From an uncultured delta proteobacterium (lineage in GTDB: Bacteria; Desulfobacterota; Binatia; UBA9968): a stretch of DNA of 64,000 bases. The notes beneath the pieces are model-generated. The model was given only the letters and a program-made list of their open reading frames with translations, did no database searches and was not told the DNA's origin. Positions 9,617 to 62,193 of this stretch are shown here, one piece after another. Where the stretch lies: NCBI GenBank assembly GCA_963737905.1, contig CAVTUQ010000004.1, positions 64,001-128,000 on the forward strand, in the 5' to 3' direction. Each line of letters starts with the position of its first letter. Within the stretch, counting starts at the first letter, position 1. Position numbers and translations under genes: made by a program.

Positions 9617-10453
9617 ATGGCAACAACGTGCCCGGTCGACTTCGATGTAGATAGATTGCGCCGGCTCGTGCGTGTGGAGTACGATCGGCTGGCGCGGGAA
9701 CCCAGGGGAAACTTTCATTTTCATCGAGGACTGGAGTATGCTTGCCGCATACTCCGCTATGACCCTGAGGAGTTGGCAACAATCCCATCCGAATGCACCG
9801 CGTCCTTTGCCGGTGTCGGCAATCCGCACCGCATCGGTCCCATCGAACCGGGTGAAACAGTCCTTGATATCGGGTGCGGCGCCGGCATGGATCTTTTGCT
9901 GGTCGCGCGCCGCGCCGGCCCTTCGGGAAAAGCGATTGGAGTGGATATGACCCCCTCCATGCTCGAGCTGGCCAAGCGCGGCGCACTAAAGGCCGGCTTA
10001 TGGGAGAACACTGAGGTTCGCCGCGGCACGGCCGAAGAGCTGCCGGTGGCGAGCGAGAGTGTCGATGTTGTTATCTCTAACGGCGTCCTCAATCTCTCAC
10101 CGGACAAAGATCGCGCCTTTCGCGAGATATACAGAGTGCTGCGTCCGGGAGGACGCTTGTATCTCGCCGATGTAGTGATTCAAAGAGAGCTTTCACTCGC
10201 AACGCGAAGCGATGTCGATCTTTGGGCAGCGTGAATTGGCGGCGCTCTGCCGGAGGTGGAGCTTTATGAAATCACCGCTGGCGTTGGTTTGACGGATGGG
10301 AAGATCGTCGAGCGCTTCGATTGTTATGAAGGTACCTCTGCTAAAGCAAAGTTATCCAAAGACCTTCTCATTCACGGCGTGAATTTTCTCGCCCGCAAAC
10401 CGTCGCGCTCAAGAGGGGCCAACGATCAGCAAACGTCGGACAGGCTAGGATAG
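9617..10453 (+). CDS. ArsM-like SAM-dependent methyltransferase, predicted selenoprotein (Sec at TGA 10232-10234)
   Basis: VLDIGCGAG motif I and SNGVLNLSPDK. LWAA-TGA-IGGALP aligns with the ArsM W-x-x-C-I-x-G-A-L Cys. ORF 10256-10453 is in the same frame. Hairpin at 10244-10262. Confidence 0.85.
10244..10262 (+). promoter_or_regulatory. Putative bacterial SECIS element
   Basis: GCTCTGCC-GGA-GGTGGAGC: 8-bp stem with two G-U pairs; loop starts 17 nt after UGA. Confidence 0.7.
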
Positions 10454-10458
10454 TCGGG

Positions 10459-11373
10459 ATGGAAAAATCATCCGAGAAAGAAATCACCACGGCGACTCTT
10501 ACAGTTTTCGCCCTTATCGCCTTTGCCGCCAACTCGGTCTTATGCCGATTGGCGCTCGGCCAGTCGGCCATCGATCCTGCAAGTTACACGGCGGTCAGGC
10601 TGATCACAGGAGCGGTCACTTTGTGGATCATCACTCGCTTCCTCCGGGCCGGATCCTTCGGGAAGTCCGGCGGCAGCTGGATTTCTGCAGCAATGCTTTT
10701 TCTATATGCGGTAACCTTTTCTTTCGCCTACCTAAGCTTGAGCGCGGGAACTGGCGCGTTGATTCTATTCGCAGCGGTGCAAATTACGATGATCGCGGTT
10801 GGCCTCTATGCGGGCGAAAGACCGGAGCTATTGGAGTGGCTGGGATTATTCATCGCCATTGCTGGCCTGATTTATTTAGTGTTTCCCGGGATCACCGCCC
10901 CGTCCATCCTCGGATCGCTACTCATGGCCACCGCCGGCATCGCCTGGGGTGTTTACTCTCTCAGAGGCCGAGGAGCCAGTGATCCTGTCAGTGTCACCAC
11001 GGACAATTTTCTACGCACAGTGCCCTTGGCCCTCGGTCTCATCTTGTTATGGCTATCGACGCTGACTATAACCCCGATGGGTTTTCTCTGGGCAGCCCTA
11101 TCCGGATCCATCACGTCGGGAGTCGGCTATGTCCTATGGTATGCGGCGCTGCCTCGCCTGACAGCGACACGGGCGGCCACGGTCCAGCTAGCACCGGCAC
11201 CGCTAGCAGCACTTGGCGGAGTTGTCGTTTTATCTGAAGCGATTAGTCTGCGTCTGGTGATATCGTCTGTGGTGATTCTGGGTGGGGTCGGCCTGGCGGC
11301 TTCCCGCCGCACGTCCGTTTCCAAGCGGCCAGAGTCTTTAACCGCTGTCGTACAGACTTCCATCAGAGACTAA
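10459..11373 (+). CDS. DMT/EamA family transporter
   Basis: ALIAFAANSVLCRLAL and SGVGYVLWYAALP motifs; multiple TM segments; starts 5 nt after the read-through methyltransferase stop. Confidence 0.9.
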   Translation: MEKSSEKEITTATLTVFALIAFAANSVLCRLALGQSAIDPASYTAVRLITGAVTLWIITRFLRAGSFGKSGGSWISAAMLFLYAVTFSFAYLSLSAGTGALILFAAVQITMIAVGLYAGERPELLEWLGLFIAIAGLIYLVFPGITAPSILGSLLMATAGIAWGVYSLRGRGASDPVSVTTDNFLRTVPLALGLILLWLSTLTITPMGFLWAALSGSITSGVGYVLWYAALPRLTATRAATVQLAPAPLAALGGVVVLSEAISLRLVISSVVILGGVGLAASRRTSVSKRPESLTAVVQTSIRD

Positions 11374-11533
11374 AAGCGACTTAAGATCTCACAGCAAACA
11401 GAATTTTTCGTTGCCGAAGTTCTTTAATCGACACGCGGCACATTCTGTATGTTTCACATGTTTCTCGGCGTCCACGTCCGACCGTGGATGCTCAACTCAT
11501 TTTTGAACTGGGAGTGAGATCTCAGATGATGAC

Positions 11534-11983
11534 TCATGCGAGGCGGACAACGATCACCCCCATCACTACCATGCAAACCAGTTGTGTAAAAAAGAAAATA
11601 AACCTCAGGGTTACTGCGAAGTTGGTAGGCGTGAGGGCGATATGGACGATGGTCTGGCAAACGCGGGCCGCCAGCAATAGGATCGCCAACCGATCCAGCG
11701 TAACGCTCCGGATGCCGGTCGCGACAATGGCCACCACCACCGCCGTGTAGAGTGGCAGGTTCTCCAGACAGTTGGCATGAGCGCGCATGGCCCGCTGGTA
11801 CCAATCGCTTCCATGTGGCTCGTCGGCCGGAAATTCCTTAATCGCTGCTCGTCCCGTCAAAATCCGACTCCATCGATACCAGCCGATGGTGCTCAGAAGC
11901 GTGATTGCAGTCCACGTCGCAAAACCCAACAAGACCCAGATCGGGATTGACACGAATCCAACCCTCTGCTTGAACTGGGCCAA
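11534..11983 (-). CDS. MAPEG family membrane protein
   Basis: RAMRAHANCLENLP motif, about 4 TM segments; true start may be GTG near 11953. Confidence 0.85.
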   Translation of the reverse strand: MAQFKQRVGFVSIPIWVLLGFATWTAITLLSTIGWYRWSRILTGRAAIKEFPADEPHGSDWYQRAMRAHANCLENLPLYTAVVVAIVATGIRSVTLDRLAILLLAARVCQTIVHIALTPTNFAVTLRFIFFFTQLVCMVVMGVIVVRLA

Positions 11984-12160
11984 AATTCTTTCGCCGCACG
12001 TGCGGTGGCCATGAGACCTGGCGCTCAGGAGTCAATGCTTCGACAATCTGGACCGGTGGGTCTATGCAGACAAAATCTACTAGGAGTTCACACCTCCGGC
12101 CAATTAGACGGCTTGAACGACTGCAACGTTTGGAACGGCTGGAACTGTCCCGAGTCGGCC

Positions 12161-13909
12161 TCACACCATCTGCATGTACACATCGACCAGGGCCGGTCGT
12201 TTTTCTTCTTTGATGACCTTGATCGCCCGTTCCACCGCCGGGCGAATCTTCTCCGGTTCGGTGATCGGCCCCTCGCCGTGAACGCTAAAGGTGCGGGCCA
12301 AGTTGGCAAAGTCCACCGGGGGCTTGGCCATTTCCATACCCACGAGTTTGTTCTCCACCGGCCGGCCGCGGTGGATCGCGACCTTTTCCTGATGCTCCAC
12401 GTCGTTGTAATAAACCCGATTGTTGGTCATTACCGTCAACAAAGGCACTCCGGTGTTGGCCGCAGTCCACAGGGCGCTCGGTGTGTACAGCATCTCGCCG
12501 TCGCGCTGCAAATTGACGCAGATCTTGCCCGTGCCCCGATAGGGTAGCGACGCGCCGACGGACGCGGCGGGACCGTAGCCTAATCCGCCACCGCCATAGC
12601 CGCCGAGAAAAAGGCCGGGTTTATCCCAAGTCCAGAGACGGCTCGGCCAGCCGCGAAAAGCCCCGGCGACCAGCAGCCAGTCTTCCTTCTTGAGCGCTTC
12701 CCAAATTTCGTAGGCCAAGCGCGGCGGCGCGATGGGCCGCTCGTCCCAACGCTTTTTGAGATCCGCTTGCCAGCGCGCGTGAACTTCCTCGTGCTGCCCC
12801 GTCATCGCCTTGCGCCGGTCATCGACGACGCTGTTGGAAAATTTGCCCTGCTTTTTGATTTCTTCAGCCAAAGCCGGGAGAAAAACTCTCGTGTTCGCGA
12901 CGATGGGCAGATCCACCGGCGCCAGTTGTTGAAAATCGCTGGTCCAACTCCGCACCGAGAGATCGTTGAGCGTCACGTTGATCACCTTGCAGCCGGGCTT
13001 GGTCGCAGGGGCGGTCGCGTGGGTCGCGGGGTCCTGCTTGACCAGAGCGCCGAATAGATCGGTCATGTCTAGCCCCATGATGACGTCGGCGTTGGCGATC
13101 AGCTCGCGGTTCTTGCCGGTAAGATTCAACGAATGCGTGTTGGGAAAATTCATGCGCGCGCCGAAATCGATGACCGGGATCGACAACAGATCGGCGAGCG
13201 CCACCAGGCTCATCACCGCGTCGTTATTCCGGCCCACGTAATCAGCGAGGATCACCGGATTCTGCGCCGTCGACAATAGTCGCGCTGCTTCTTTGATCGC
13301 ATCGTAGTCCGCTTGCAGCGGCGCCGGGGGACGGAAGCGGCTCGGATCGGGCAGCGGGATCTCTTTTTCGATCGCGGCCTCCTGATCGGTGACATCGAAG
13401 CAGAGATAGACCGGCCCGCCCGGGTCGCTCATGGCGATGCGATAGCCTCGCATGATCGAGGACGGAAACGCTTCGACGCCCACGGGTTGGTCGTCCCACT
13501 TGACGAAGTCGCGCACCAGATTACCCTGCACCTGCGCCGTATGGATCCAGTCGATCCACGGGCGGCGTTTACTCGAATTCATCGGCCCTGTGCCGCCCAT
13601 GACCATCACCGGCGTGTGGTCGCACCAGGCGTTGTAGATCGCCATGGAAGCGTGCTGCAGGCCGACCACGTTGTGGACGATGGCGGGCATGATCTTACCC
13701 GTCGCTTTGGCGTAACCATGCGCCACCGCGACGGCGATCTCTTCGTGACAGCAGAGAATCATCTCCGGATTGGGTTGTCGGCCGCTCTCATAATTCACTA
13801 GAGAATCGTGAATTCCGCGAAAGCTCGACCCCGGGTTGAGTGCGACGTATTCAATGCCAAGGATTTTCAACAGATCAACGACGAGATCCGATCCATAACG
13901 CGCTGCCAT
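12161..13909 (-). CDS. Thiamine pyrophosphate-binding enzyme (acetolactate synthase/benzoylformate decarboxylase-like)
   Basis: NPGSSFRGIHDS, HEEIAVAVAHGYAK, RDGEMLY...NN ThDP motif. Confidence 0.92.
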   Translation of the reverse strand: MAARYGSDLVVDLLKILGIEYVALNPGSSFRGIHDSLVNYESGRQPNPEMILCCHEEIAVAVAHGYAKATGKIMPAIVHNVVGLQHASMAIYNAWCDHTPVMVMGGTGPMNSSKRRPWIDWIHTAQVQGNLVRDFVKWDDQPVGVEAFPSSIMRGYRIAMSDPGGPVYLCFDVTDQEAAIEKEIPLPDPSRFRPPAPLQADYDAIKEAARLLSTAQNPVILADYVGRNNDAVMSLVALADLLSIPVIDFGARMNFPNTHSLNLTGKNRELIANADVIMGLDMTDLFGALVKQDPATHATAPATKPGCKVINVTLNDLSVRSWTSDFQQLAPVDLPIVANTRVFLPALAEEIKKQGKFSNSVVDDRRKAMTGQHEEVHARWQADLKKRWDERPIAPPRLAYEIWEALKKEDWLLVAGAFRGWPSRLWTWDKPGLFLGGYGGGGLGYGPAASVGASLPYRGTGKICVNLQRDGEMLYTPSALWTAANTGVPLLTVMTNNRVYYNDVEHQEKVAIHRGRPVENKLVGMEMAKPPVDFANLARTFSVHGEGPITEPEKIRPAVERAIKVIKEEKRPALVDVYMQMV

Positions 13910-13989
13910 AAATACCTCCTCGACGATTATTGACTTGAACAGCGACCGAGGACCGAGTCCCCTTCGCTAATGGGCAATGCGCCTCTACA

Positions 13990-14059
13990 GTTCAAAGTTC
14001 AAGGTTCAAAGGGGGAGGGGGGATAAATACCTTGAACCTGGAACGTTGAACTTTTGAAC
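13990..14059. repeat. Heptamer tandem repeats arranged as an inverted repeat
   Basis: (GTTCAAR)x3 at 13990-14010 opposite TTGAAC-type units at 14032-14059. Confidence 0.75.
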
Positions 14060-14072
14060 GGCCCTTTGGGCC

Positions 14073-15161
14073 CTAGTGAACGGTGGCCGACTGAGACGCC
14101 GCCTGTAACGGCTGTGGAATTTCCATGTCGTAGAGCTTTGCCACGTTGGTGCAAACAAGTTTCCTGCGCACGTCTGCCGGCAAGTGCCCCAGGTCGCGAT
14201 CGATATATTTTTTCGACTCCGGCCATGTGGAATTCCCGTGGGGATAATCGTTGGACCACATACAGTTGTCCTGACCCCACCATTCGAAACTATGGCCCGC
14301 CGCGGTGTCGCGGAAGAACGTCCCATAGACCTGTCGGTTGAAATATTCGCTGGGGTTTTTCGTGATCGGCGGAGGATTCACGCCTTTGAACCTGTTGTAA
14401 TAATAATCCCACTGCTGGAGCATGAACGGCATCCATCCGATCTCATTCTCGACGCTGACGAACCTGAGCTTGGGATATCGATCCAAGACTCCGTAGAAAA
14501 TCAGTTCAAAAAACGCATCGATGATTTCCTTGAGCTTCAGATTCACGCTGCCCCGATAGGCCTCGACGCCTGTTCGCTTGTTACCGAACACGGTTTCCTT
14601 GTGGTAGCCATGCCCGGTGAGGATATGCAGATTCACCGGCATGTTGAGATCCTGGGAAGCCGCCCAGAACTTATTGTAATGCTCCGAATGAAACGGTAGG
14701 TCCGGATGTGGCGCCTGCCAGATGATCGATCCCTTGAGACCGGCCTTCGCGCAACGCTCCAGCTCCTTTACCGCCGCGTCGATGTCATAAACCGAGATCG
14801 CGCCGATACCAATCAAACGATTGGGAGCAACCTTACAATACTCAAACAACCAATCGTTGTACGCTCGGAAACAGGCCTCTTGAAGCTTCGCGTCGTCCAT
14901 GGCGAAGTGCGGCAGCAGGTTGGTCGGGTAAAGCACCTCGGCGCTGAGCCCGTCGGTTTCCATCTCCTTGATTCGGCAATTTGGATCCGACCCACCTGGA
15001 TGCGTCTGAAAGCTTTCTCCCACTTTGAGCTGGGGAAAAACCGGAGCTTGTTCTCGGAACGACGGCGCAACTCGCTCCTTCACGGTGTTGGGTGGTTCCA
15101 TCACGTGGGAGTCCGAAGAAATCAGCACCTCACAACCTGCATTATTTCCATTGCCAGCCAT
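14073..15161 (-). CDS. Amidohydrolase_2 family protein
   Basis: ISSDSHVMEP, PVNLHI, ENEIGWMP, MWSNDYPH. Confidence 0.92.
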   Translation of the reverse strand: MAGNGNNAGCEVLISSDSHVMEPPNTVKERVAPSFREQAPVFPQLKVGESFQTHPGGSDPNCRIKEMETDGLSAEVLYPTNLLPHFAMDDAKLQEACFRAYNDWLFEYCKVAPNRLIGIGAISVYDIDAAVKELERCAKAGLKGSIIWQAPHPDLPFHSEHYNKFWAASQDLNMPVNLHILTGHGYHKETVFGNKRTGVEAYRGSVNLKLKEIIDAFFELIFYGVLDRYPKLRFVSVENEIGWMPFMLQQWDYYYNRFKGVNPPPITKNPSEYFNRQVYGTFFRDTAAGHSFEWWGQDNCMWSNDYPHGNSTWPESKKYIDRDLGHLPADVRRKLVCTNVAKLYDMEIPQPLQAASQSATVH

Positions 15162-15361
15162 AAAATCTTCCTCCTTTAGCCATATGTATATGGTTACCTA
15201 TTCATTAACCGCAAAAAACTCAAAGTTCGCAAAGTTTTCGAAAAAACTTCTCTTTGTGTTTTATGCGTTCTTTGCGGTCAAGTTTCTCCTCAATCCTAGC
15301 GACTATTGCAGGTCTACCACCACAGACCTCAACGGGTCAACCGGGCGCGAGCACGCTCACA

Positions 15362-15428
15362 GTTTCGAGTCTCGCGTTTCGAGTTTCGTGTTTTAAACCC
15401 GAGACTAGAAACCCGAAACACGGAACTG
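15362..15428. repeat. Heptamer tandem repeats arranged as an inverted repeat
   Basis: GTTTCGA GTCTCGC GTTTCGA GTTTCGT opposite AAACCCG AGACTAG AAACCCG AAACACG. Confidence 0.7.
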
Positions 15429-15450
15429 AAAAGGCCGAGCCAGGCCTTTT
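15429..15450 (-). terminator. Possible intrinsic terminator
   Basis: AAAAGGCC-N6-GGCCTTTT immediately after the stop of the substrate-binding protein gene. Confidence 0.4.
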
Positions 15451-16427
15451 CAGAAGAGCCCTTCTTTTTCCAACTTCCGCGCGATGCGCTCGTCGATGAC
15501 ATCTTCGGCTTTGAGCTTGCGAATCTGCTCGTTGCTTCTGCCGAGAATACGGATCACGTTGCGCAGGCCATCGACGTTGGCATAAATCCGCCGGTCGTAA
15601 AGGACCTTCATCATGTCATAGCCCGCCTCCGCGTCTTCTACCTTTGACAAGCGCAAGGTGCGCATCAAGCTCCGGATAACCGTAGGTTTGTTTTCAGGAG
15701 TATTGATGAATTTAATGGTCTCGATCATCGCTCTAAGGTAGCGCTCTACGGTGTCGGGCGAGCGGTCGACAAAGCTCCGCCGCGCCATGATGCCCAGACC
15801 CTGAAACGGGATGCCGAGCGTGAGAAGATCGGCCAGAACGCGGAAACCCTGCCGCTCTAGTTGAGCCCCAAACGCATAACCGAGATACGCCCCATCGATA
15901 ATGCCGCCGGTTGCAAGCGCTTGAGCCATAACCCCCTGATCGCCGATGATCCGAAACTGAATGTTGTCACGCTCCGGATTGATCCCCCAGTGATCAAAAG
16001 CCAGCATGCTGAACATCCACACGCCCCCGCCGATACTTTGGACGCCGATCCTTTTGCCCTTGAGATCCGCCGGCGTCTTGATATTGGGAGCGACCACGAA
16101 CGTGCCATCGAGCTTGTTAATCAAACCTGCGACGAAGACCAAGTCGAGTCCGCCGGCCATCGCGCCGATGGATGCACCCGTAGCCGAACCGCCGTGAAAT
16201 TGCGTCTCTCCGGCAGCGAGCGCCGACAAGCCGACCGCGCCGCTCCGCACGTTGACGACTTGAGCATCCAGACCATACTTTTGAAAAATCCCCGCATCTT
16301 TAGCCACAAAAAGCACGCCACTGCGCTCGTTCAACCCGCCATAAGTGACGACGATCTTTGTCGGCGCCGAAGCGGCAAAACGGCAGGAGAAAAGCCCAGT
16401 GTCAAAACTAGAACGATCAAACAACAT
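15450..16427 (-). CDS. ABC substrate-binding protein (NMT1/SsuA-like)
   Basis: LFVAKDAGIFQKYGLD and DLKGKRIGV motifs; the N-terminus or signal may be frameshifted. Confidence 0.9.
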   Translation of the reverse strand: MLFDRSSFDTGLFSCRFAASAPTKIVVTYGGLNERSGVLFVAKDAGIFQKYGLDAQVVNVRSGAVGLSALAAGETQFHGGSATGASIGAMAGGLDLVFVAGLINKLDGTFVVAPNIKTPADLKGKRIGVQSIGGGVWMFSMLAFDHWGINPERDNIQFRIIGDQGVMAQALATGGIIDGAYLGYAFGAQLERQGFRVLADLLTLGIPFQGLGIMARRSFVDRSPDTVERYLRAMIETIKFINTPENKPTVIRSLMRTLRLSKVEDAEAGYDMMKVLYDRRIYANVDGLRNVIRILGRSNEQIRKLKAEDVIDERIARKLEKEGLF

Positions 16428-16662
16428 CGCATCCGATACTCCATCACTTTATTATCTCCTCTTTCCCATCGACGACTTCTTGTACTCCGTGCACATCTCG
16501 GATTGCAAGCGCATCGGTTTATGACTTCTGTTCGCTTCAGGTCGCCGGAGCCCTCTATGAAATCCGGTCGAGCCGGGGTAAACCCGGCACCCGGAGCAAG
16601 TCTTGACGCGCGCTTTCAATTGACCATAATGGTCAAGTAGGACAAACCAGAAAGGAATATCT

Positions 16663-16953
16663 ATGAAGACTACAACCGTCTCAAAACTCAAGGCTTCTCT
16701 CAGTGAGTATCTACGATCGGTCAAGGCAGGCGAAGAAGTCCTAGTCACTGAACGCGGGCGCCCTATTGCCAAGCTCACTCCGGTCGCAAGTTCCGACATT
16801 CTGCCTGATCACTTGGTCGAAATGGAAAAACAGGGTTTCATCAAAATCGGCTCAGGAAAGTTGCCGAAGGGTTTTTGGGATCTTCCGCGGCCCAAAGATC
16901 CTAAGGGGTTGGTTCTCAAGACTGCTTTACGGGAACGGGAGGAGGGCTGGTGA
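16663..16953 (+). CDS. Phd/YefM family antitoxin
   Basis: VSKLKASLSEYLRSVKAGEEVLVTERGRPIAKL. Confidence 0.92.
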   Translation: MKTTTVSKLKASLSEYLRSVKAGEEVLVTERGRPIAKLTPVASSDILPDHLVEMEKQGFIKIGSGKLPKGFWDLPRPKDPKGLVLKTALREREEGW

Positions 16954-26762: not shown

Positions 26763-26789
26763 TAAGCTCCAACTCGCATTGAGGACACT

Positions 26790-28637: not shown

Positions 28638-29978
28638 TCACCTGCCCTCTTGGCTAGCATGCTTTCGCCGCAGCCAAACGTGCACGCGCGCGCGAATGTG
28701 CGTCGGCTTGAATGGCTTGGTCACGTAGTCGGTGACCCCAGCCGCGAATCCCTCCGCTGTGTCCTCTGCCTCCACCTGCGCGGTCAGGAGCACGACAGGC
28801 ACGTCACGAAGATCCGGGTTTGACTCGGCGCGCAGGGCGCGGCACACCTCAAGCCCATTGCGGCCGGGCATGTTCCAGTCTAGCAGGAGAAGATCCGGGT
28901 GCTCGGCGCGGGCAATCTCCAGCGCCGCGTTCCCGTCGCTCGCCGACAACAGGCGGTAGCCCTCTGGCCGCAACGTCATCGTCAAAAGACGCAGGATGTC
29001 CGGGTCGTCGTCAACGAGCAAGATGGTTGCTGTCGAGGCGCCAACCCTTTTGGCAATGGCATCTTCCGGTCGCCTCTCAGTGCGTAGCGTGTCGGCCTCC
29101 CGCTCCGCCAACTCGATCGTCTGGCCCTCTGCGGCAGCAAAGACGTCGAGCCTGCCGGCGATGGCGCGCCGGCGACAGCTCTCCACTAGCCGGTCTAGCG
29201 CCGCGTCATCGCGGAGTGGATCATGGTGAAAGAGCGCCAGCCGCTTCACGTCCGCTGCAAGCGCAAAGTCTACGGCCAGCTCGGCCGGGCTGTGGCCCCA
29301 TGTCAGCTTGCTCGGGTACTCCTCCAGCGTGTACTGCGCGTCGTGGATGACGAGGTCAGCGCCGGCAAGGAATTCCACGTGCCGCTGGTCCTCACGATGA
29401 ACCGGAAGGATCTGAGTCGGATCGGCCACGTCGGGCTGGTGGCGCGAGTGCGGCTCGTGATCGGTAGCGTAGACCACTGTCACGCCGCCGGCTTCCAAGC
29501 GATAGCCCAGCGCAAGCCCGGGGTGATTCAGGTAACGGGCCGTGACCCGAACGGAGCCGATGTCAAAGGTACCCTCAGCAAGCTCGTGGTAGCGAATCGT
29601 GGCGTCGAGCTGGCCAAGCGTCACCGGGAAATATGTGTACTCCATCTGCCCGGCGAGAGTCTCCTCCAGGCGCTGCCCCAAACCCTGCGCCGCATACACG
29701 TCCCATTCGTTCCCCTGGATGAAGAGCGGCGCAAAAAAAGGAAAACCCTGGATGTGGTCCCAGTGCGTGTGAGTAAGCAGGAGATGACCGCGTATGGGAC
29801 GCTCGCCCGACGCCACCAGGCTGCGGCCGAGATCATGAGCACCGGTGCCGCAGTCCAGAATAATCAGCGTCCCGTCTGCGGCGCGCACCTCCACACAGGA
29901 GGTGTTACCTCCGTAGCGAATCGTGCTAGGCCCAGGCTTTGCCAGCGAGCCTCGCGTCCCCCAGAACCGAATTCGCAT
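28638..29978 (-). CDS. Metallo-beta-lactamase-fold hydrolase fused to a C-terminal receiver domain
   Basis: FWGTRGS, GGNTSC, THTHWDHIQG, WGHS, FHHDP; receiver LVDDD...LLDWNMP...TKPF. Confidence 0.92.
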   Translation of the reverse strand: MRIRFWGTRGSLAKPGPSTIRYGGNTSCVEVRAADGTLIILDCGTGAHDLGRSLVASGERPIRGHLLLTHTHWDHIQGFPFFAPLFIQGNEWDVYAAQGLGQRLEETLAGQMEYTYFPVTLGQLDATIRYHELAEGTFDIGSVRVTARYLNHPGLALGYRLEAGGVTVVYATDHEPHSRHQPDVADPTQILPVHREDQRHVEFLAGADLVIHDAQYTLEEYPSKLTWGHSPAELAVDFALAADVKRLALFHHDPLRDDAALDRLVESCRRRAIAGRLDVFAAAEGQTIELAEREADTLRTERRPEDAIAKRVGASTATILLVDDDPDILRLLTMTLRPEGYRLLSASDGNAALEIARAEHPDLLLLDWNMPGRNGLEVCRALRAESNPDLRDVPVVLLTAQVEAEDTAEGFAAGVTDYVTKPFKPTHIRARVHVWLRRKHASQEGR

Positions 29979-34710: not shown

Positions 34711-35523
34711 ATGAGACCCATCCCCATCCCCGCGCAGGTTCCGGCCAAGGACGGCATGGCGCAGATTCCCGACACCCGTCTCTGGTACTGGGACACGGGT
34801 GGCCAGGGGGTACCGATCGTGCTTCTGCATCCGGCGACCGGTAGCGCTTTGATCTGGGGTTACCAGCAGCCGGTGCTAGCGAAGGCTGGCTACCGCGTCA
34901 TCGCCTATTCGCGGCGTGGCTATTACAACTCTGCACCCTTCGACCGGAACAATCCTGGTATCGGCTCCGAGGACCTTAGGCACCTCGCGGATGTCCTGGG
35001 CCTTGGACGATTTCATGTGGTGGCGTCGGCGGCCGGCGGCAGTATTGCGTCGGACTTCGCGTTCTCTTACCAGGACCGGCTCCTGAGCCTGACCATTTCC
35101 AGCAATTCCTTCGGGGTGCGCGACGGGGAGATCGCGAAGGCGGCGGCGTTCATTCGCCCCAAGGGCTTTGAGCAATTGCCGGCCGAATTTCGCGAGATCG
35201 GTCCATCATACCGAGCAGCCAACCCCGAAGGCGTGAAGGCGTGGCTGGAGCTCGAGCACAAAGCGCTGATTGGCTCCGAATATCGACAAACGCTCAAGAA
35301 TGAGATCACTCAGGCGAGGCTCAAGGATCTCAAGCTGCCGACGCTGCTGATTGCCGGCGCTGCGGACTTGTTGACGCCGCCGTCTATCTCGCGGATGATC
35401 GCGGCCGAGATTCCCAACAGCCGGGTGGTGCTGATGCCCGAGGCCGGTCACTCGTCGTACTGGGAGCAGCCGGAGATCTTCAATCGCGCCGTGCTCGAGT
35501 TCATCGGCGGCCAGTCGAAATAG
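34711..35523 (+). CDS. Alpha/beta hydrolase
   Basis: VLLHP, YSRRGY, atypical elbow ASAAGG, GAADLLTP, AGHSSYWEQP. Confidence 0.85.
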   Translation: MRPIPIPAQVPAKDGMAQIPDTRLWYWDTGGQGVPIVLLHPATGSALIWGYQQPVLAKAGYRVIAYSRRGYYNSAPFDRNNPGIGSEDLRHLADVLGLGRFHVVASAAGGSIASDFAFSYQDRLLSLTISSNSFGVRDGEIAKAAAFIRPKGFEQLPAEFREIGPSYRAANPEGVKAWLELEHKALIGSEYRQTLKNEITQARLKDLKLPTLLIAGAADLLTPPSISRMIAAEIPNSRVVLMPEAGHSSYWEQPEIFNRAVLEFIGGQSK

Positions 35524-45389: not shown

Positions 45390-45824
45390 TTACCCCACGA
45401 GCGGATTGACGACGGTGAGTGTCGGAAAGCGGCTGAAGTCGCGATCGGAAGTCCACAACTCGCGGACGCCATGATCGCGGCAGACCGCGGCGATGCGAGC
45501 ATCATGGACTTGAGGACCACTGATGCGGCCGTGCTCAAGGAGGGAGCGAAGCTCCGGCCAGTAGCCTTCGGTCTCTGCCAACAGGACCAAACTCGGCGAC
45601 TCAAACCAGGCTTCGATTTGATCGATGGCGGCGGCGATCGGGGTGGGCGGCGAATAAATACGCGGGTGAGTTACGATGGCAAGAAATTCATGTATACAGG
45701 GCCACGGGATCGCCCAAGGAGACTTCGCTTCAGCGAGTTCCGTGATCTTGGTCAGGGCCGCATCATGCCACGGCGAGTCCTCGCGATGAGCGTAGACGAG
45801 CAAATTGGTATCGACGGCGATCAT
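45390..45824 (-). CDS. vapC: VapC (PIN) toxin
   Basis: IAVDTNLLVYA, HEFLAIVT, HDARIAA, SDRDF. Confidence 0.93.
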   Translation of the reverse strand: MIAVDTNLLVYAHREDSPWHDAALTKITELAEAKSPWAIPWPCIHEFLAIVTHPRIYSPPTPIAAAIDQIEAWFESPSLVLLAETEGYWPELRSLLEHGRISGPQVHDARIAAVCRDHGVRELWTSDRDFSRFPTLTVVNPLVG

Positions 45825-46066
45825 CCGCCCCTTCCCTGGTAAATCGCTTCACGAATTCGTTCCCACGTTGCATCTTGCACCCCGGGCTGAAGCCCCTTGC
45901 CCTTGAACGCCGCCTTCCGGAGCCGAAACACACCGCGACTTTTTCGTTCCGCGACGATTCGCCTGAGACCCTGCTCGACGTATGCCCGAACCGTCGTCCC
46001 TTCCTTTGCGGCGAGTCTCTTGGCCTCGTCCAAAAGTGAATCTGATATCTCTATGGTTGTCTTCAT
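45821..46066 (-). CDS. VapB-type antitoxin
   Basis: MKTTIEISDSLLDEAKRLA; ATGA overlap with vapC. Confidence 0.88.
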   Translation of the reverse strand: MKTTIEISDSLLDEAKRLAAKEGTTVRAYVEQGLRRIVAERKSRGVFRLRKAAFKGKGLQPGVQDATWERIREAIYQGRGG

Positions 46067-46360
46067 ATGGGTATATGTATCATTGTATATGGCTGTACAT
46101 CAAGTCGGCAGGCGCGTAGGAGCGGCACAGGTCAGGCCGACGCGGTTGACCGAGAGTTGCGACTCCGTATAAGTTACACGTTAGCGGCGGATCAGATCGA
46201 GAGGTGCTGGTGAGAAATCAGTGGACACGAACGGGGCGAATAATTGCGTTCCTCGTTCGGGGTAACGCTGAGATTCTAAGGGCGATTGGCGACCGTTTGT
46301 CGAGCTGATTGAGAGGGCTCGTAAGTGGGGATGCTCTTGACAACGAAGATCGGAGGCAAT

Positions 46361-46915
46361 ATGGGCAGCGAACAAAGAGGACCTGAAGTCGGAGAGCGTG
46401 CTCCGGAGTTTTTCGTCAAGGTGGGGAGCGACAGATTGGCATTGAGCCAACTCGCAGCCCGTCATGACAAGCTGGTTCTCACGAGCCAAGACAGCTATCG
46501 GTATCACCCCAACTGAGCCGCCAGTGTCGCTGCTTCGTTGAAGCAGGACTACGCGAAGATCGTTCGGGCCGGCGCTGAGTTGGTCATGATCTCGCCGGAT
46601 TCTCGGGAACAACACCACCAATACGCGTTTACACTTTTCGGCGAGGAGCTGCCTTACCTTTTCGTTTCAGATGGAGATTTCGAAATCGCGCGGTGCTACG
46701 GTCTGATCCGCCAAGAGGAACATCCCCACGGCGGCTTCTATGATCGCTCGCTCTGGATCTTGGATCCCGACGGCGTAATCACCCATAAGAGTCTTCCCTG
46801 GACAGGGAACGCCAGCATCAAAGAGTATCAAAAGTTGTTCAGCCTGATCGGCAGCGATCCGGGAGAATGGCGGGCCACCTGCGGCGTTCGGTTTGAAAGG
46901 GGCCACACTGAGTGA
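46361..46915 (+). CDS. Divergent peroxiredoxin/AhpC-TSA fold protein, predicted selenoprotein (Sec at TGA 46514-46516)
   Basis: GGAGG RBS; VGERAPEF...YHPN-TGA-AASVAASLKQDY...VMISPD...FVSD...RSLWILDPDG. ORF 46538-46915 is in frame. Hairpin at 46526-46549. Confidence 0.8.
46526..46549 (+). promoter_or_regulatory. Putative bacterial SECIS element
   Basis: GTC-g-CTGCTTC-GTT-GAAGCAG-GAC: perfect 7-bp upper stem; loop starts 20 nt after UGA. Confidence 0.72.
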
Positions 46916-55267: not shown

Positions 55268-55269
55268 GA

Positions 55270-55968: not shown

Positions 55969-57245
55969 TTCAAATTTCCTCGCCCGACGACCAGGGCGGA
56001 ATTTTTCGATCCGAAGCCGATGCAATTACAAAGCGCGTAGTCGACGGCTTTGGCGATGCCGCGATTGGGGATGTAATTGAGATCACACTCAGGGTCCGGC
56101 TCTTCGTAGTTGATTGTCGGAGGGAGAAAACCGTCGTTCATCCCGAGGATCGCGCTGACGACTCCCGCTGCACCGGAGGCACCTTGCGGATGGCCGATCA
56201 TCGATTTGAGCGAGCTCATGGGAATTTGGTACGCGTCTTTGCCAAAGCACAGCTTGACGGCCAGGCTCTCGGTTTTGTCGTTCAGGACCGTTGAGGTGCC
56301 GTGCAGCGCCAGGTAACCGATTTCATCCTTGCAGATCCCCGCATCCTGGACCGCTATCGTCATCGCGCGAGCCGGCTCCTCTCCGCAGGGGTCCAAACGG
56401 ACGCGATGATAAGCATCGCAAGTCGATCCGTAGCCCAGCACCTCGGCGAAAACCGCCGCGCCGCGGGCGAGCGCAAGCTCTCGCTCCTCCAACACCAAGC
56501 TCCATGCACCCTCGCCCAGCACAAATCCGTCCCGCATGCGATCAAAGGGACGCGACCCGCCGTGAGGGTTCTCGTTATGGGAGGTGGAGACCGCCTGCAT
56601 TATACAGAAGCCTTGCATGATCCCGGGAGTGATCGTTGCGTCGACACCGCCGGTGATCAGACGGTCGGCAAGACCGAAACGGATCATATTGAAAGCATAG
56701 CCGATGGCGTCGGTGGAGCTGGTGCATCCCGTCGAGATCATGTGGCTCGATCCGCGGAAATCAAAATAAAGCGACACTTCGCTCGAAATCGTGCCCAGAG
56801 TCGAGCTGGACACATTATAGGCGCTCACTTTACGCAATTGATCAGTGAAGTAGAGACGATATTGCTCTTCGATAAAGTCCGGCGTGCCGCCGCCGCTCCC
56901 GAGCACAACGCCCCAGGAGCGCTTTTCTTCCAAGCTCGTTTCGTGCAAACAGACCTGGGCCACGCCGAGCGCTTCCTTCGTTGCCGCGATGGCGAGAGGA
57001 ACCGCGCGTCCCACGCGCTTCAGCTCCCTCGGCGCGAGATAGTCTTCCGGTTTGAAGTGTTTCACCTCACCGGCAATGCGGCACGAAAGGGATTCAGGAT
57101 CGAAAAAAGTGATGGTATCGATGCCGCTCCGTCCACTACGAGTGGCATCCCAAAATTCTCCGATGCCGACGCCGTTGGGACTCATCGCGCCTAGCCCAGT
57201 GACGACGACCCGGTGTCGCTTTGGATGGCCATTATTGCCGTTCAT
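55965..57245 (-). CDS. fabF: Beta-ketoacyl-ACP synthase II family
   Basis: RVVVTGLG; catalytic Cys-His-His in STGCTSS, HGTST..ND and KSMIGH; GFGSKN. Confidence 0.85.
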   Translation of the reverse strand: MNGNNGHPKRHRVVVTGLGAMSPNGVGIGEFWDATRSGRSGIDTITFFDPESLSCRIAGEVKHFKPEDYLAPRELKRVGRAVPLAIAATKEALGVAQVCLHETSLEEKRSWGVVLGSGGGTPDFIEEQYRLYFTDQLRKVSAYNVSSSTLGTISSEVSLYFDFRGSSHMISTGCTSSTDAIGYAFNMIRFGLADRLITGGVDATITPGIMQGFCIMQAVSTSHNENPHGGSRPFDRMRDGFVLGEGAWSLVLEERELALARGAAVFAEVLGYGSTCDAYHRVRLDPCGEEPARAMTIAVQDAGICKDEIGYLALHGTSTVLNDKTESLAVKLCFGKDAYQIPMSSLKSMIGHPQGASGAAGVVSAILGMNDGFLPPTINYEEPDPECDLNYIPNRGIAKAVDYALCNCIGFGSKNSALVVGRGNLK

Positions 57246-57362
57246 CTTGACTCTTCACACGGCGAAATGCTTCACTTCGAGCATAGCACCCGGGGAACGG
57301 TCCGTTAAGGCGGTGCCGGAAGAATCCAGAGTTTTTCCATCAGAGAGAAAAGTCGCCTATAG

Positions 57363-58160
57363 ATGACATTTCAAAACCAAGTTGTCCTGATCACCGGTGC
57401 ATCCAAGGGCATCGGCCGGTGCCTCGCCATTGACATAGCGTCGCGGGGAGCCATCGTCGTCGGCTGTGGCCGTTCGCCGGAAGGATTGCAGGCGCTGTCG
57501 ACCGAATTGCGTCGCACCAGCCCTTTATCCACCGCCGTTAAGTGCGACGTAGCTCAACTCGATCAGGTTCGCGCGATGGTTGCCAAAGTTCTCTCCGAGT
57601 TCGGCAAGATCGACATTCTGATCAACAACGCCGGCATCGGCATGCGCAAGCCTTTCGCCGAAACGCCCATCGATATCATCGAAGACGTGATGAGAGTCAA
57701 TTACCTCGGCACGGTCTACTGCACCCACGAAGTCCTGCCGTCGATGATCGCACGACGGAGCGGGCACATCGTGAATATCTCCTCCGCCGCAGGAAAGATC
57801 GGCACACTGAACCTAGCCGGTTACTGCGCCTCCAAGTTTGCCGCGAACGGGCTCAGCGAAAGCCTCTACCACGAGCTCACACCCCTTGGAATTAACGTAT
57901 CCGTTATCTGCCCGGGTGCGGTGCGAACCGACTTCAATAAAGGGTTCGCGGACACGCCGCCTAAATCACCTTCCGCATTAGTCGTCAGTCCGGAATTTGT
58001 TTCAGCGGCGGTGATCAAGGCCATCGAGAAAAAGCGCTTCGAGGTCGTGCTGCCGCGTTGGTTGGCGTTGATCTGTTGGTTTAAAGGCATGGCTCCAAAC
58101 CTTTTTCGCACGGTTGCGCGCCGTTCTTTCCGGCATGTTGTGGAAAACAAAAAGACGTGA
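57363..58160 (+). CDS. Short-chain dehydrogenase/reductase
   Basis: TGASKGIG, NNAG, YCASK. Confidence 0.95.
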   Translation: MTFQNQVVLITGASKGIGRCLAIDIASRGAIVVGCGRSPEGLQALSTELRRTSPLSTAVKCDVAQLDQVRAMVAKVLSEFGKIDILINNAGIGMRKPFAETPIDIIEDVMRVNYLGTVYCTHEVLPSMIARRSGHIVNISSAAGKIGTLNLAGYCASKFAANGLSESLYHELTPLGINVSVICPGAVRTDFNKGFADTPPKSPSALVVSPEFVSAAVIKAIEKKRFEVVLPRWLALICWFKGMAPNLFRTVARRSFRHVVENKKT

Positions 58161-58223
58161 CATATAAAATAAACGAGCACGCAGCAAAGCCGCAGGGTAT
58201 CAAAAAAACAATTTAGGGGATAC

Positions 58224-58814
58224 ATGTTACTCAAAACAATTTTCGTTCTGTTGTGGTTCCTATCATTCAGCCATTTCCCAGCGTTCGCCCAATTAGGTCC
58301 TAAGGATGGGACCGATCTGAGTCCAACGGATCTCCAGCGAGTCAAAGTAGGACAGCCCGCGCCTGACTTCACGCTGCAAGATGTCGACGGCAAAAACATG
58401 TCGCTGTCGGATTTCCGCGGGAAGAAGTCAGTTGTCCTGGTCTTCTATCGCGGCTACTGGTGACCCTTCTGCATCGAACAGCTCGGGAAGCTGAAAAGTT
58501 TATTGACGAAACCGCAGAAAGAGAAGATCCAGATTCTTGCCGTCAGTGTCGACAGCCATGAAGACTCTAAAAAATTCGCCCAGATGCTCCAGAAGCGCTT
58601 CGAAGGTGAGTTCGACTTTCCACTTCTGGAAGACAAAGACCACAAAGTGATCAACCGCTACGGGATATTCAACCCGGATGGTTCTGGCTGGCCCCATCCG
58701 ACTACTTTGGTGATTGATCCGCAGGGCGTGGTGCGTTGGAAATTCGTAGAAGTGGATTACAAGAAGAGACCTTCCAACGAACAGATACGACAGCAGTTAG
58801 CCAAGATTAAATAG
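58224..58814 (+). CDS. Exported peroxiredoxin-like (AhpC/TSA) protein, predicted selenoprotein with UxxC (Sec at TGA 58461-58463)
   Basis: Signal peptide; [10 protein letters not shown]...[19 protein letters not shown]...LAVSVD...[14 protein letters not shown] 58503-58814 is in frame. Confidence 0.92.
58479..58493 (+). promoter_or_regulatory. Putative bacterial SECIS element
   Basis: CAGCT-CGGGA-AGCTG; loop starts 20 nt after UGA. Confidence 0.6.
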
Positions 58815-59934
58815 CCGAGTTGCCGATCCATGGGATGCGGGTAGAGGCCCTTTCTGTTCGGAACACCAGGCAAGATCGAGAAAACGTTCGAGCTCTCGGT
58901 CGTCGATCACCGGAGCTTCCACACGATGGCGAGCGAGCAATCTGCGCGCGGCCGAGTCATCGAACTGAACGTCTTGTTTTAGATAATCTCGATAAGGCGA
59001 CAGCATCCGCGCCACTCTCATTTCGAGGGGCGATCGGATGGCCAGCCGTTCGGTAGCATTCACAAGAGACAGATTGTGTAAGTCGAGACGCGCGCTCATC
59101 ATCTCCAGCATGCGCTTTTGCGTGGGTGGATCTTTAGCAACAAGATGAATCGTTTTGCCTGCCGCTTCGGGATCGTCACTCAGTCGTTCAATGGCCGCCG
59201 CGACGTATTCCACTGGAACAATATTAAATCGAGCCTGGGGTCGGCCCTGAATACGAAGAGGAGTATTTCCGGCGCCGGCTTTGCACGACAAGGCGATCAG
59301 GAGCCGGAGAAACGCCAAAAACAGGTTGGACGGCACTCCGCCAGGCGTTGAGGGCGCGCCCCCGACAACGATGCTAGGTCTGAAAATTACTAGATCGACT
59401 CCAAGCTGGCGGCAGGTTTGTTTGAGCCGGATCTCTAGCTCCAGCTTGAGCCGTTCATAACCATTGTGAAATTCCTGCCCCACATCCGTTTGGTTTTCAT
59501 AGATCATGCCTTCGCGGCCGCCGCAAACAAACGCCGTTGAGATATGGACCCAACGAGCGTAAACCCCCGGAACGGAGGATTTTAAGGAGAGCAAGTGGCC
59601 CGTCGATCTGAGCAAATCGCGCTGATTCTTGCTCGCTGGCTGAGAAAGTCGTCTCTCCGGCGCAGTGGATCACCGCATCGATGGTTGACCCGTGGCGCTT
59701 AAGATTGCCCTGTATCACAGCAGGATTTGCGAGATCTCCGTCCACCACCTCGAGCGATCGCCGAGAAACTTCACCAAAGATTTCCGCCACCCGCTGCTCT
59801 CCCGTTAGTCCAGCCCGGTGCCGGGCCAAGATCACCACGCGCCGGCCGGCCAGCAAAAGGCGACTAACCACATGCCTGCCGATGAAGCCCGTAGCGCCGG
59901 TTACGAGGACCGCCGGATCTGATTTTCTGAGCAT
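58797..59934 (-). CDS. Extended SDR (fatty acyl reductase / thioester reductase-like), frameshift near 59565
   Basis: LVTGATGFIG, IHCAG; HISTAFV, YERLK, FRPSIV, IVPVEYVA. Confidence 0.85.
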
Positions 59935-60651
59935 GAGAGATTCCTACGATTGAGGCTCCGTCCTCCCCACCTATCCCAGTGCCCCGCGTACCGCTGCGTG
60001 TCGAGTCTAAGCGAATGGAGAAAAAGAACCCATAGAATGAACGACAAAGCACGCCACGGACCCCACGTGAGGAAACGGCGTCCTGACGTAATCAGCGGGA
60101 GAGGAATGACTTTCGTCCGACCCCGTCTTTTCAATCGCTGGCTAAAATCTAAGTCTTCCATGAACACGTCGCGATAGCCGCCAATTTCGCGAAAGATCGC
60201 GGCCCGCACGAAGATGCCCTGATCCCCGTAATAGTTGCGCGTCAGAAAGTAGCGCCGCCGGTTGATCCAGCTGATAAACCTTAGACTCCATACCGCTTTC
60301 TGCAAAGCGGTGCTCGAAAGCTCCTCCTAAAATAGCGTTGTCTTGCAAAACGCGCTGGATCTCCGTCAAGGCGTCCAGCGGCGGAAACGAGTCCGCGTGC
60401 AGAAAGAAAAAGATATCCCCGACGGCTGCGGCGGCGCCGGCATTCATCAGAGCCGCGCGGGTGGAACGGCCAGGCCATAAAATACGCGCGCGCCCGGCCA
60501 CGGCATCTTCGGTCGCTTTTATGCCACCCGAAGCGGCCACGATAATTTCTGCCGTTTCGATACCACCCAAGCGCTCCAAGTGATCGAGTGTGAAACGAAG
60601 CGCTTGAGCGTCATTTCGAGCAGGTATGATGATCGAGATAGACGGATCCAT
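59901..60651 (-). CDS. GT2 glycosyltransferase, TIGR04283-like, frameshift near 60300
   Basis: ISIIIPARND, RAALMNAGA, FLHAD; YGDQGIFVR, FMED, TSGRRF. Confidence 0.8.
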
Positions 60652-60907
60652 AGCCGGTCAGTCGCATTCCGCCGCGTCAACGAAACCCTCTGACTGTTTC
60701 TCTAACCAGCACATGCTTCGGGAGCTTCACCGAGCTTAGCAAATTTTACATCAAGCTTACTCAGCCGATCAACTCGCTTCAACGAGGATCAGGCGAACTG
60801 GACATCGCCGTCCAGGATGGACACCTCCCTTCGCCCCGCGCAAGGCGATCAGTTCGACTTCAACGCGACAAACTCTACAAGTAGTTCTCAATTTTAGCAT
60901 CCACTCG

Positions 60908-61507
60908 CTACAGCAGTTTTTTTCCAACCATCAGTGCGTCGACGTAGTCTTTCCGCAAGCTCGCGTAGTCCTCCGTCAATTGGACACCCAGCGCATCCGC
61001 CATTCGCGTGATAAAGTTTCTGTAACTGGTGACCGCGGCGATATCGAGAATCTCGGACTCACTCCAACCTGCCTCCTTTAGGGTCCGCACATCGGGCGCG
61101 TCCACTTCGCTCGGGCGAAGGGTAATTTTCTCAGCGTACTCGAGCATGGCCTTATCCTTGTCATCCAGCTTCGACTGGCGAAAATCGCGCGCGACCGCCA
61201 TCACGAGATCGTAATCTCCATTGACTTCTTTACGGAGAAACTCTCCGTGGGCAACGGTTCAATAACTGCACTTGAGCAGCGCACCGACGAGAACGGAGAT
61301 CATTTCTTCACGTTTGACTCCCAGGCTGGAACCGCCAAATTGAATCGCCCTGGAAAATACGTGCTGGGCTTCGAGAAGGTCAGGCCGGAGGCTAAAAATC
61401 TTCGCGATGTTTGAGACTTTGCCGGAGTGGTGATTCATTCTTTTCTGATAAATCTCTTTGATCTTGCCTGTCGCCTCCGACTCCTTGATGGTTTTAATAA
61501 AAGGCAC
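60908..61507 (-). CDS. AhpD/CMD-family peroxidase-related protein, predicted selenoprotein CxxU (TGA at 61261-61259)
   Basis: REEMISVLVGALLKCSY-TGA-TVAHGEFLR continues in frame into ORF 60908-61204 (MLEYAEKITL.P...NFITRMADALG). Confidence 0.92.
61232..61248 (-). promoter_or_regulatory. Putative bacterial SECIS element
   Basis: mRNA ACGGAGA-GUU-UCUCCGU: perfect 7-bp stem; loop starts 17 nt after UGA. Confidence 0.75.
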
Positions 61508-61638
61508 CTTTCAAGTTCTCCTTTCAGGGATCGTTATCGACATAGGCCGCTTTGCTCGAGCTCGCGGATCAACGTGTCATCGATAAATTGCCCCGGTTTT
61601 ACATCCTTGGCGAAGCTGTCGGCAAGACATGTGCGGCA

Positions 61639-62193
61639 TCACCCACGAAGAAAATCGTGACCGGAGATTCCCATCGCGTCGGCCATGCGATCGTTGAAAT
61701 TGTAAAGGCAGATTACGTAGACGATATCTAAAATATCTCGATCGGCGAAGCCGTGAGAGCGCAGTCTGTTGATATCGTCTTCGCTCGCCGTCGACGGCGC
61801 GATCGTCAGCTTGACCGCGTAATCCAACATCGCACGCTCCGCGGCCGGCAAATCTAACCGCGTGTAATCCTGCTTGATGCCTTCGACCAAAGGATCGTCG
61901 TTCGATTCGGTACGGAGAGCCTCCCCGTGCGCGGTCATTCAATAACTGCAATGGTTGGTCGCCGATACGACGGTCGCGATCATCTCGCGCTGGCGCCGCG
62001 TGATGCGCGATTCGCCGCGCATGATCCCGACGTCGATCTCGCGCCAAGCGGCCAGAACGTCGGGATTCAGGCTTTGTACTTGCCGGATCATCGAAACTTT
62101 TCCTCGCGCCGCCGACGGGCCGGCGCCAGACTCGTAAATTTCTTTCAGCTTGCCGGTGGCCTCAGACGGAGGGATCGTGCGGATGTAAGGCAT
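61639..62193 (-). CDS. AhpD/CMD-family peroxidase-related protein, predicted selenoprotein CxxU (TGA at 61941-61939)
   Basis: QREMIATVVSATNHCSY-TGA-MTAHGEALR...AMLDYAVKLT..P...YNFNDRMADAMG, contiguous and in frame. Confidence 0.92.
61912..61928 (-). promoter_or_regulatory. Putative bacterial SECIS element
   Basis: mRNA ACGGGGA-GGC-UCUCCGU: 7-bp stem with one G-U; loop starts 17 nt after UGA. Confidence 0.72.

Follow-up and report, generated by a model that had tools for sequence, protein, structure and literature searches.

The 64,000-nucleotide stretch analysed here, referred to below as the window, spans contig C4:64001-128000 in the assembly of an uncultured delta proteobacterium of the Binatia. 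It carries five genes, P1 to P5, each of which is one open frame broken by a single in-frame TGA. These five codons very probably specify selenocysteine (Sec, written U in protein motifs), and all five genes belong to selenoprotein families that have already been described: an ArsM-like methyltransferase (P1), an AhpC/TSA-type peroxiredoxin-like protein (P2), a peroxiredoxin (Prx)-like thiol:disulfide oxidoreductase (P3) and two tandem AhpD-like proteins (P4 and P5). Their coordinates are collected in Table 1.

The joined frames were obtained from a listing of open reading frames (ORFs) and from translation with TGA read as U, and the coordinates were rechecked. The original prediction, made from the sequence letters, had paired ten ORFs over five TGA codons, and all five pairs were recovered where it had placed them. 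In every protein a single Pfam domain crosses the TGA, and in the four proteins that were searched against the PDB (P1, P2, P3, and P5) the alignments run through it as well. Solved or full-length homologs of these same four proteins carry Cys at the Sec site. The TGA codons had been proposed to occupy catalytic Cys positions, and this proved correct: the equivalents are C224 of CmArsM, the solved ArsM of Cyanidioschyzon, in P1, the peroxidatic Cys in P2, and the first or second Cys of a CxxC motif in the others.

Conservation of the codon itself was traced by a six-frame search of 40 relatives, drawn from the genus, the family, and the order, and the matches were then aligned codon by codon. 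For P2, which has no homologs in these 40 relatives (E<=1e-15), ten loci came from a search in which each species was represented by a single genome. The site column reads TGA in 83 of the 84 relatives' rows across the five genes, the P4 and P5 sets overlapping and holding 31 distinct sequences together. Gene by gene, the counts are 20/20 for P3, 19/20 for P1, 25/25 for the P5 set, 9/9 for the P4 set and 10/10 for P2. Ortholog identity falls as low as 34-40%, and both flanks of the TGA are conserved. Rows L035, L044, L057, L070, L080, L087, and L105 are supplied by two unpublished genomes, G006 and G012; without these genomes the counts become 19/19 for P3, 17/18 for P1, 23/23 for the P5 set and 8/8 for the P4 set, leaving the conclusions unchanged. 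The single exception is a P1 ortholog from a related genus (L048, G014:C584) with TCA (Ser) at the site and a hairpin that has lost its upper stem, which looks like the replacement of Sec by Ser accompanied by decay of the Sec insertion sequence, or SECIS. The homologs as a whole show the pattern that had been expected of them, namely one gene, with TGA kept in close relatives and Cys present in distant homologs.

Table 1. Selenoprotein genes, Sec codons and downstream hairpins in the window (window positions; spacing is counted from the UGA to the loop)
Feature	Position	Strand	Details
P1, ArsM-like S-adenosylmethionine (SAM)-dependent methyltransferase	9617-10453	+	9617-10234 joined to 10256-10453; 278 aa; stop TAG
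P1 Sec-UGA	10232-10234	+	residue 206, WAAUIGGAL
P1 bacterial SECIS (bSECIS)-like hairpin	10244-10262	+	8 bp, two G-U; loop GGA; 17 nt; -10.1 kcal/mol
P2, AhpC/TSA-type peroxiredoxin-like	46325-46915	+	46325-46516 joined to 46538-46915; 196 aa; stop TGA
P2 Sec-UGA	46514-46516	+	residue 64, YHPNUAAS
P2 bSECIS-like hairpin	46530-46546	+	7 bp; loop GTT; 20 nt; -7.6 kcal/mol (-16.9 with lower stem)
P3, Prx-like thiol:disulfide oxidoreductase	58224-58814	+	58224-58463 joined to 58503-58814; 196 aa
P3 Sec-UGA	58461-58463	+	residue 80, YWUPFC = UxxC
P3 weak bSECIS-like hairpin	58479-58493	+	5 bp; loop CGGGA; 20 nt; -4.2 kcal/mol
P4, AhpD-like (CMD family)	60908-61507	-	61259-61507 joined to 60908-61204; 199 aa
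P4 Sec-UGA	61259-61261	-	residue 83, CSYU = CxxU
P4 bSECIS-like hairpin	61232-61248	-	7 bp; loop GTT; 17 nt; -8.4 kcal/mol
P5, AhpD-like (CMD family)	61639-62193	-	61939-62193 joined to 61639-61938; 184 aa; stop TGA
P5 Sec-UGA	61939-61941	-	residue 85, CSYU = CxxU
P5 bSECIS-like hairpin	61912-61928	-	7 bp, one G-U; loop GGC; 17 nt; -7.5 kcal/mol

Hairpins downstream of the five UGA codons

Each TGA is followed by a hairpin with a stem of 5-8 bp and a loop that begins 17-20 nt downstream, and the loops are those that had been read from the sequence at the outset. The bSECIS consensus comprises a loop of 3-9 nt, an upper stem of 4-16 bp, a G among the first two loop nucleotides, a UGA-to-loop distance of 16-37 nt and a minimum free energy of -7.5 kcal/mol or below (PMC13188914). 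The loop, stem, G, and spacing rules fit all five hairpins, while the energy rule fits P1, P2, and P4, with P5 lying exactly at the limit. The shared geometry singled out in the original prediction is that of the ordinary bacterial SECIS.

The comparison among relatives adds evidence from the pairing itself. In the pooled AhpD hairpin (the 31 distinct sequences of the P4 and P5 sets), the 7-bp stem is paired in 99.5% of 217 cells, a score reached by none of 500 shuffles, and slid controls pair 27-66% of cells. Double changes in this stem convert G-C to C-G in ten sequences and A-U to G-C in three. One of them couples a Gly-to-Ala codon change to a silent substitution in a Leu codon (CTC to CTG), which protein constraint alone does not predict. 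For P1, 98.8% of 80 cells are paired across ten orthologs and one pair is altered on both sides, a pairing that is statistically weak, as 48 of 500 shuffles reach it; in more distant P1 homologs the hairpins are different ones with the same spacing. In the 20 orthologs of P3, alignment columns 19-25 and 29-31 are invariant, synonymous sites included (Gln CAG 20/20, Leu CTC 20/20), and the third codon position within the loop varies freely. Eight of these orthologs have a 6-bp form with a central loop of GGC (seven), GGA or GGT, and in two sequences with this form the last stem pair is broken. The 17-nt core of the P2 hairpin is identical in nine of the ten loci, with a G-U for an A-U in the tenth.

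The chance level of such hairpins was gauged with a strict geometry: a stem of 5 bp or more that includes no more than one G-U pair, and a loop of 3-7 nt that starts at 17-21 nt and has G as its first or second nucleotide. Genome-wide, it occurs after 556 of 16387 TGA-bridged ORF pairs (3.4%), after 3.2% of the TAG-bridged pairs and after 2.8% of the TAA-bridged pairs. Four of the five sites show it, P1 falling outside solely through its two G-U pairs. Within the window, 20 TGA-bridged pairs carry a coding signal on either side of the stop. Among them P1, P2, P4, and P5 have a hairpin of 6 bp or more after the TGA, that of P3 has 5 bp, and none of the 15 remaining pairs has one that reaches 6 bp.

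Other TGA-bridged pairs of the window, at 7966, 20886, 26792, 28640, 35208, and 49035, were considered and set aside as ordinary stops, adjacent genes or antisense frames. A ribosome-binding site and an ATG follow just past the stop at 7966 and an ATG just past that at 28640, 26792 is the C-terminal end of a gene, and the pairs at 35208 and 49035 are in the wrong frame or antisense.

Selenocysteine machinery and competing explanations

The genes selD, selB, and selA lie adjacent on one strand of contig C29 (C29:70900-75700; locus L016:8923-13694), and all three score above the curated NCBIfam cut-offs of their models (selA, TIGR00474, 607 bits; selB, TIGR00475, 410 bits; selD, TIGR00476, 388 bits). 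The selD gene itself holds an in-frame TGA, placing Sec in KAAGUAAKL. The nearest named relatives of SelA, at 84-89% identity, are labelled Candidatus Binatia. Of the four Sec genes whose presence had been suggested as a check, these three were recovered, and the gene for tRNA-Sec was not found in the assembly.

With these components, the five UGA codons would be decoded in the manner known from bacteria. SelA would make Sec-tRNA from selenophosphate supplied by SelD, and on the mRNA the hairpin 17-20 nt past the UGA would serve as a bacterial SECIS element, binding SelB that carries Sec-tRNA(Sec). SelB would then deliver selenocysteine to the ribosome ahead of termination by release factor 2. 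Each of the five genes is predicted to yield one polypeptide that has Sec at a redox or ligand site and acts on substrates that are putative in each case.

A number of results weigh against the decoding of these codons as Sec. Searches of the assembly with Rfam, with aragorn, and by synteny did not find tRNA-Sec: the best match to RF01852 reached 46.6 bits with a cut-off of 47 (150 of 852 first-look candidates scored) and is called tRNA-Leu(taa) by aragorn, and the stretch that is syntenic with the selC flank of the same-genus genome G002 holds no tRNA-Sec. The P3 hairpin misses the energy rule of the bSECIS consensus. Folding energies of the 60 nt after each TGA do not stand apart from those of shuffled sequences, with z values of 0.16, -1.23, -0.82, -1.34, and 0.48 for P1 to P5. 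The hairpins of P2 and P3 hardly vary, so that covariation is uncountable there. Lastly, contigs of an RNA run lie at 58011-58160, 58550-58824, 58948-59196, and 60468-60648 and leave the TGA of P3 outside; given their partial cover and possible DNA carry-over, they are not evidence of transcription.

The search for tRNA-Sec can be set in a wider frame. At its default threshold aragorn reported no tRNA-Sec, and Rfam found none around the sel cluster on C29. At lowered thresholds aragorn returned many false calls of this tRNA; four of the regions were run through Rfam, which found no tRNA in them, and one overlaps the start of the RNase P RNA. The assembly, in which 44 tRNA genes were detected, comprises 6.7 Mb in 46 contigs and is 87.5% complete. 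In the order, 10 of 15 genomes have a tRNA-Sec that scores 73-78 bits, among them the same-genus G002 and all seven f2 and f3 genomes searched. We infer that the gap stems from assembly incompleteness and that tRNA-Sec is present in the living cell.

The competing explanation that retains most ground is that UGA codes for a standard amino acid (Trp, Gly or Cys), be it by a change of the genetic code or by read-through independent of a SECIS element. We judge this highly improbable, although the missing tRNA-Sec and the weak hairpin of P3 speak for it. TGA ends 1342 of 3401 long ORFs and is thus the commonest terminator, and prfB, which encodes release factor 2, is present (531 bits), which together show that the code has not been reassigned; P2, P5, and selD themselves end in TGA. 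The full selA-selB-selD cluster has also been kept, and selD requires Sec insertion to be made. The sites, moreover, are the exact Cys positions of redox motifs, and tRNA-Sec is found in the relatives named above.

It is very improbable that the TGA codons are nonsense mutations or sequencing errors and that the ten ORFs are the pieces of five dead genes. The quality of the assembly gives this explanation some footing. Contamination is 6.7%, and stretches of the near-identical contig pairs C1/C6, C2/C32, C4/C24, C7/C17, and C16/C44 share 91-99% protein identity. Two strains that are close relatives, or else collapsed duplicates, seem to be present in the assembly; likely one-base errors or frameshifts also occur in two neighbouring genes (at 59556 and 60293). 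Such accidents do not account for a TGA at the same codon throughout nearly all of the relatives' rows, in several genera and, going by the record labels of the P2 loci, in other phyla, nor for a protein that is conserved on both sides of the TGA and a conserved hairpin after each one. No more credible is the notion that each pair is two separate small genes abutting in frame, which is how standard gene callers record the pairs and how databases hold the relatives of P2 (in pieces of ~61 aa and 125-130 aa), since single Pfam domains and PDB alignments cross the TGA, the downstream pieces would start inside a fold, the full-length P2 homolog is one 216-aa protein with Cys at the site, and the remaining TGA-bridged pairs that were looked at in the window turned out to be ordinary stops or to lie in wrong frames. 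The reading of the five TGA codons as Sec thus remains by far the best account of these genes.

The five proteins and their neighbourhoods

Families that correspond to all five proteins appear among the selenoproteins listed in PMC13188914: arsenite methyltransferase (NF008823, UxxG), Prx (TxxU), Prx-like thiol:disulfide oxidoreductase (UxxC), and AhpD-like proteins (TIGR01926, CxxU). In the same source, genes for Prx-like and AhpD-like selenoproteins are reported to form operon-like clusters in metagenomes.

P3 resembles the Prx-like UxxC family in its AhpC/TSA domain (Pfam AhpC-TSA, PF00578; 1.3e-36, residues 42-172) and in having WUPFC at the thioredoxin-type site, where it aligns with WCGPC of 2yp6 and U takes the place of the first Cys. 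It differs in its hairpin, which is weaker than the consensus, and in a hydrophobic, signal-like segment at the N-terminus, by which P3 is probably exported. Its orthologs are 59-87% identical, and among 12 paralogs in its own genome four have TGA and three Cys. The TGA is covered by contigs from three other metagenome studies of soil and freshwater (>=90% identity), and the codon shows no difference among the matches listed (86 further rows lie beyond these). Soil and freshwater are likewise the sources of the metagenome runs that contain parts of the window.

Between P3 and P4, on the minus strand, lie two genes that are each split over two frames, at 58797-59934 and 59901-60651. They encode an NAD-dependent epimerase/NAD_binding_4 protein and a family-2 glycosyltransferase. 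The contigs of the three other studies have one base fewer at 59556 and at 60293, inside these split genes, and the window probably carries one-base assembly errors there, the other possibility being real frameshifts.

P4 and P5 both exceed the cut-off of TIGR01926 (108.4 and 136.8 bits; cut-off 81.8), and both match Pfam CMD (3.9e-7 for P4). The counterparts of the P5 motif CSYU in 2pfx and 3c1l are CFYC and CYYC, which places U at the second Cys of CxxC. They are like the known AhpD-like selenoproteins in their TIGR01926 score, their CxxU motif, the hairpin directly after the UGA and the presence of a Prx-like gene nearby, and they differ in forming a tandem pair on a strain-variable segment of 1.6 kb. 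In the contigs of the three other studies (>=90% identity), position 60656 joins 62261 through 78 other letters. Those strains thus lack the segment 60657-62260, a cassette that varies from strain to strain. Apart from this joint, contigs from four sequencing runs gave no cover of P4 and P5, and no homologs of the two were found in two same-genus genomes (E<=1e-20).

Directly upstream of P5 on the same strand are an ORF of 70 aa (62197-62409) and a gene whose 301-aa product has a 4Fe-4S dicluster domain (62414-63319, minus strand); P5 and these two ORFs are possibly in one operon. The cluster extends past the right edge of the window, where C4:130247-134452 holds four further genes with a TGA, namely two more AhpD-like genes (TGA at C4:130618 and 131289), an OsmC-like gene (133625) and a Prx-like gene with GWUPYC (134102).

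P1 has the fold of SAM-dependent methyltransferases (Pfam Methyltransf_31; 1.7e-31, residues 77-207), and its UIGG (UxxG) places U at C224 of CmArsM (4fr0, 4kw7, 5eg5), in keeping with the ArsM selenoproteins. We take C72, C174, and C224 of CmArsM to be its As(III)-binding cysteines. Counted along the alignment, the first two of these are replaced in P1 by Val and Gly, and the score of P1 with NF008823 is 215.9 bits, below the ArsM cut-off of 263. The label of ArsM in the original prediction therefore holds for the C224 equivalent and falls short for the protein as a whole: P1 is ArsM-like and not a demonstrable arsenite methyltransferase. Its substrate may not be arsenite, considering the score, the two replaced cysteines and the transporter neighbour that further sets P1 apart from the ArsM selenoproteins, an EamA-type gene (10459-11373) which begins five bases after P1. 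A second copy of P1, 98% identical, lies on contig C24 (C24:3113-3946).

P2 is a divergent peroxiredoxin-like protein. It has the AhpC/TSA fold signature (Pfam AhpC-TSA; 3.4e-12, residues 22-154), and its U falls on the peroxidatic Cys in the alignments with 5enu and 5ovq, as had been proposed; an Arg in its RSLWILD stretch aligns with an Arg of the same two structures. These features are shared with Prx selenoproteins of the TxxU type (PrxU, NF040737). The peroxiredoxin motif is PxxxTxxC, with Thr or Ser three residues before the peroxidatic Cys, together with a conserved Arg. P2 departs from this motif, having HPNU in place of the canonical TxxC, with His rather than Thr or Ser three residues before Sec and a three-residue insertion upstream (YRYHPNU), and it scores 28-30 bits with the NCBIfam peroxiredoxin models. 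Translation is set to start at GTG 46325, and ATG 46361 is a possible alternative.

The ten P2 loci are 65-75% identical, and their record labels name an uncultured delta proteobacterium and Chloroflexota, Binatia, and Syntrophobacter metagenome-assembled genomes (MAGs). In all ten, the TGA sits inside an invariant DSYRYHPN-U-AAS(M/V)AASL. In two very large protein collections, relatives of P2 are found almost solely as pieces. C-terminal pieces are ~125-130 aa long; the best 120 of 328 matches all cover 60-66% of the query, and these protein records are solely truncated C-terminal "peroxiredoxin" entries. N-terminal pieces are ~61 aa long, and both aligned examples stop exactly ahead of the TGA. 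The single full-length homolog (P0124) has Cys at the Sec site and likewise keeps the His. The lack of P2 homologs in the 40 relatives hints that this stretch was horizontally acquired. Directly upstream of P2 lies a VapC (PIN)/VapB toxin-antitoxin pair (45390-46066, minus strand).

A selenoprotein-rich lineage

Taken as a whole, the assembly contains at least 28 selenoprotein genes with family support. These comprise the five of the window, the four named above that lie to its right on C4, two FdhA, five GrdB (two of them partial), five further AhpC/TSA genes, one further OsmC, three rhodanese genes, one UGSC gene, selD, and the second P1 copy on C24. The underlying screen compared Sec and Cys among paralogs and gave 87 sites, many of them spurious owing to duplicate contigs or wrong frames, from which 30 were picked by eye and passed to Pfam. 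Among the first 20 candidates picked, 18 fall in known selenoprotein families; among the second ten, Pfam supported none as credible. The count is too low in that the screen finds only genes with paralogs, and it is pushed up by the near-identical duplicate contigs, which inflate any gene count in this assembly. A genome-wide count from codon usage and hairpins was abandoned, as it did not set TGA apart from the two controls, TAG and TAA; with the threshold at its strictest, the pairs that passed were 26 of 425 for TGA, 8 of 581 for TAG, and 22 of 478 for TAA.

The GrdB-type genes (component B of glycine/sarcosine/betaine reductase) are full-length at L117, L118, and L121 and partial at L119 and L120, with Sec in TUGT/S/C. 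Their number is unusually high for one genome. AhpC/TSA-type homologs were found in all 41 genomes searched (G000 included), and most of the matches listed carry one in-frame TGA.

Groups of bacteria known to be rich in selenoproteins are mostly anaerobes. The present genome resembles them in its complement of thioredoxin-fold, AhpD-like, GrdB, FdhA, rhodanese, OsmC, and UGSC selenoproteins and in a SelD that itself contains Sec, and it differs in number. Published maxima are 54-63 genes, with at least 57-63 in the Olavius algarvensis Delta 1 symbiont and 63 in a Methylomirabilota MAG; selenoproteomes of at least 57 and of 63 genes are cited in PMC13188914, and the top ten genomes of BSepDB have 46-63 (PMC13326102). 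The unusually large selenoproteome that had been foreseen is thus borne out as a lower bound of 28 genes, which lies below these maxima. A full-text search of the literature, judged on the titles and abstract openings among the matches listed, gave no published account of a Binatia selenoproteome.

A broader proposal may be made from these observations, and it has two parts: that P2 may represent an undescribed subfamily of HxxU peroxiredoxin-like selenoproteins in soil and freshwater lineages (going by record labels, Binatia, Chloroflexota, and delta proteobacterium MAGs), and that the Binatia-like order in which this genome seems to fall may be a selenoprotein-rich soil and freshwater clade in which oxidative-defence families predominate. 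We put this forward tentatively and regard it as rather unlikely.

For annotation, the finding means that ten ORF fragments become five selenoprotein genes, and the same correction is due for hundreds of database entries of the P2 family and for many genes across the order. What is understood of how Sec is encoded is unchanged, the hairpins being ordinary and the four protein families already catalogued. The selenium-dependent bacteria nevertheless gain a lineage from soil and freshwater that has at least 28 Sec genes, most of them for thiol-peroxidase-like defence. What remains of interest is the HxxU peroxiredoxin-like family of P2 and the selenium-rich character of the lineage; if P2 does represent a subfamily of its own, it may work by a chemistry other than that of the classical peroxiredoxins.

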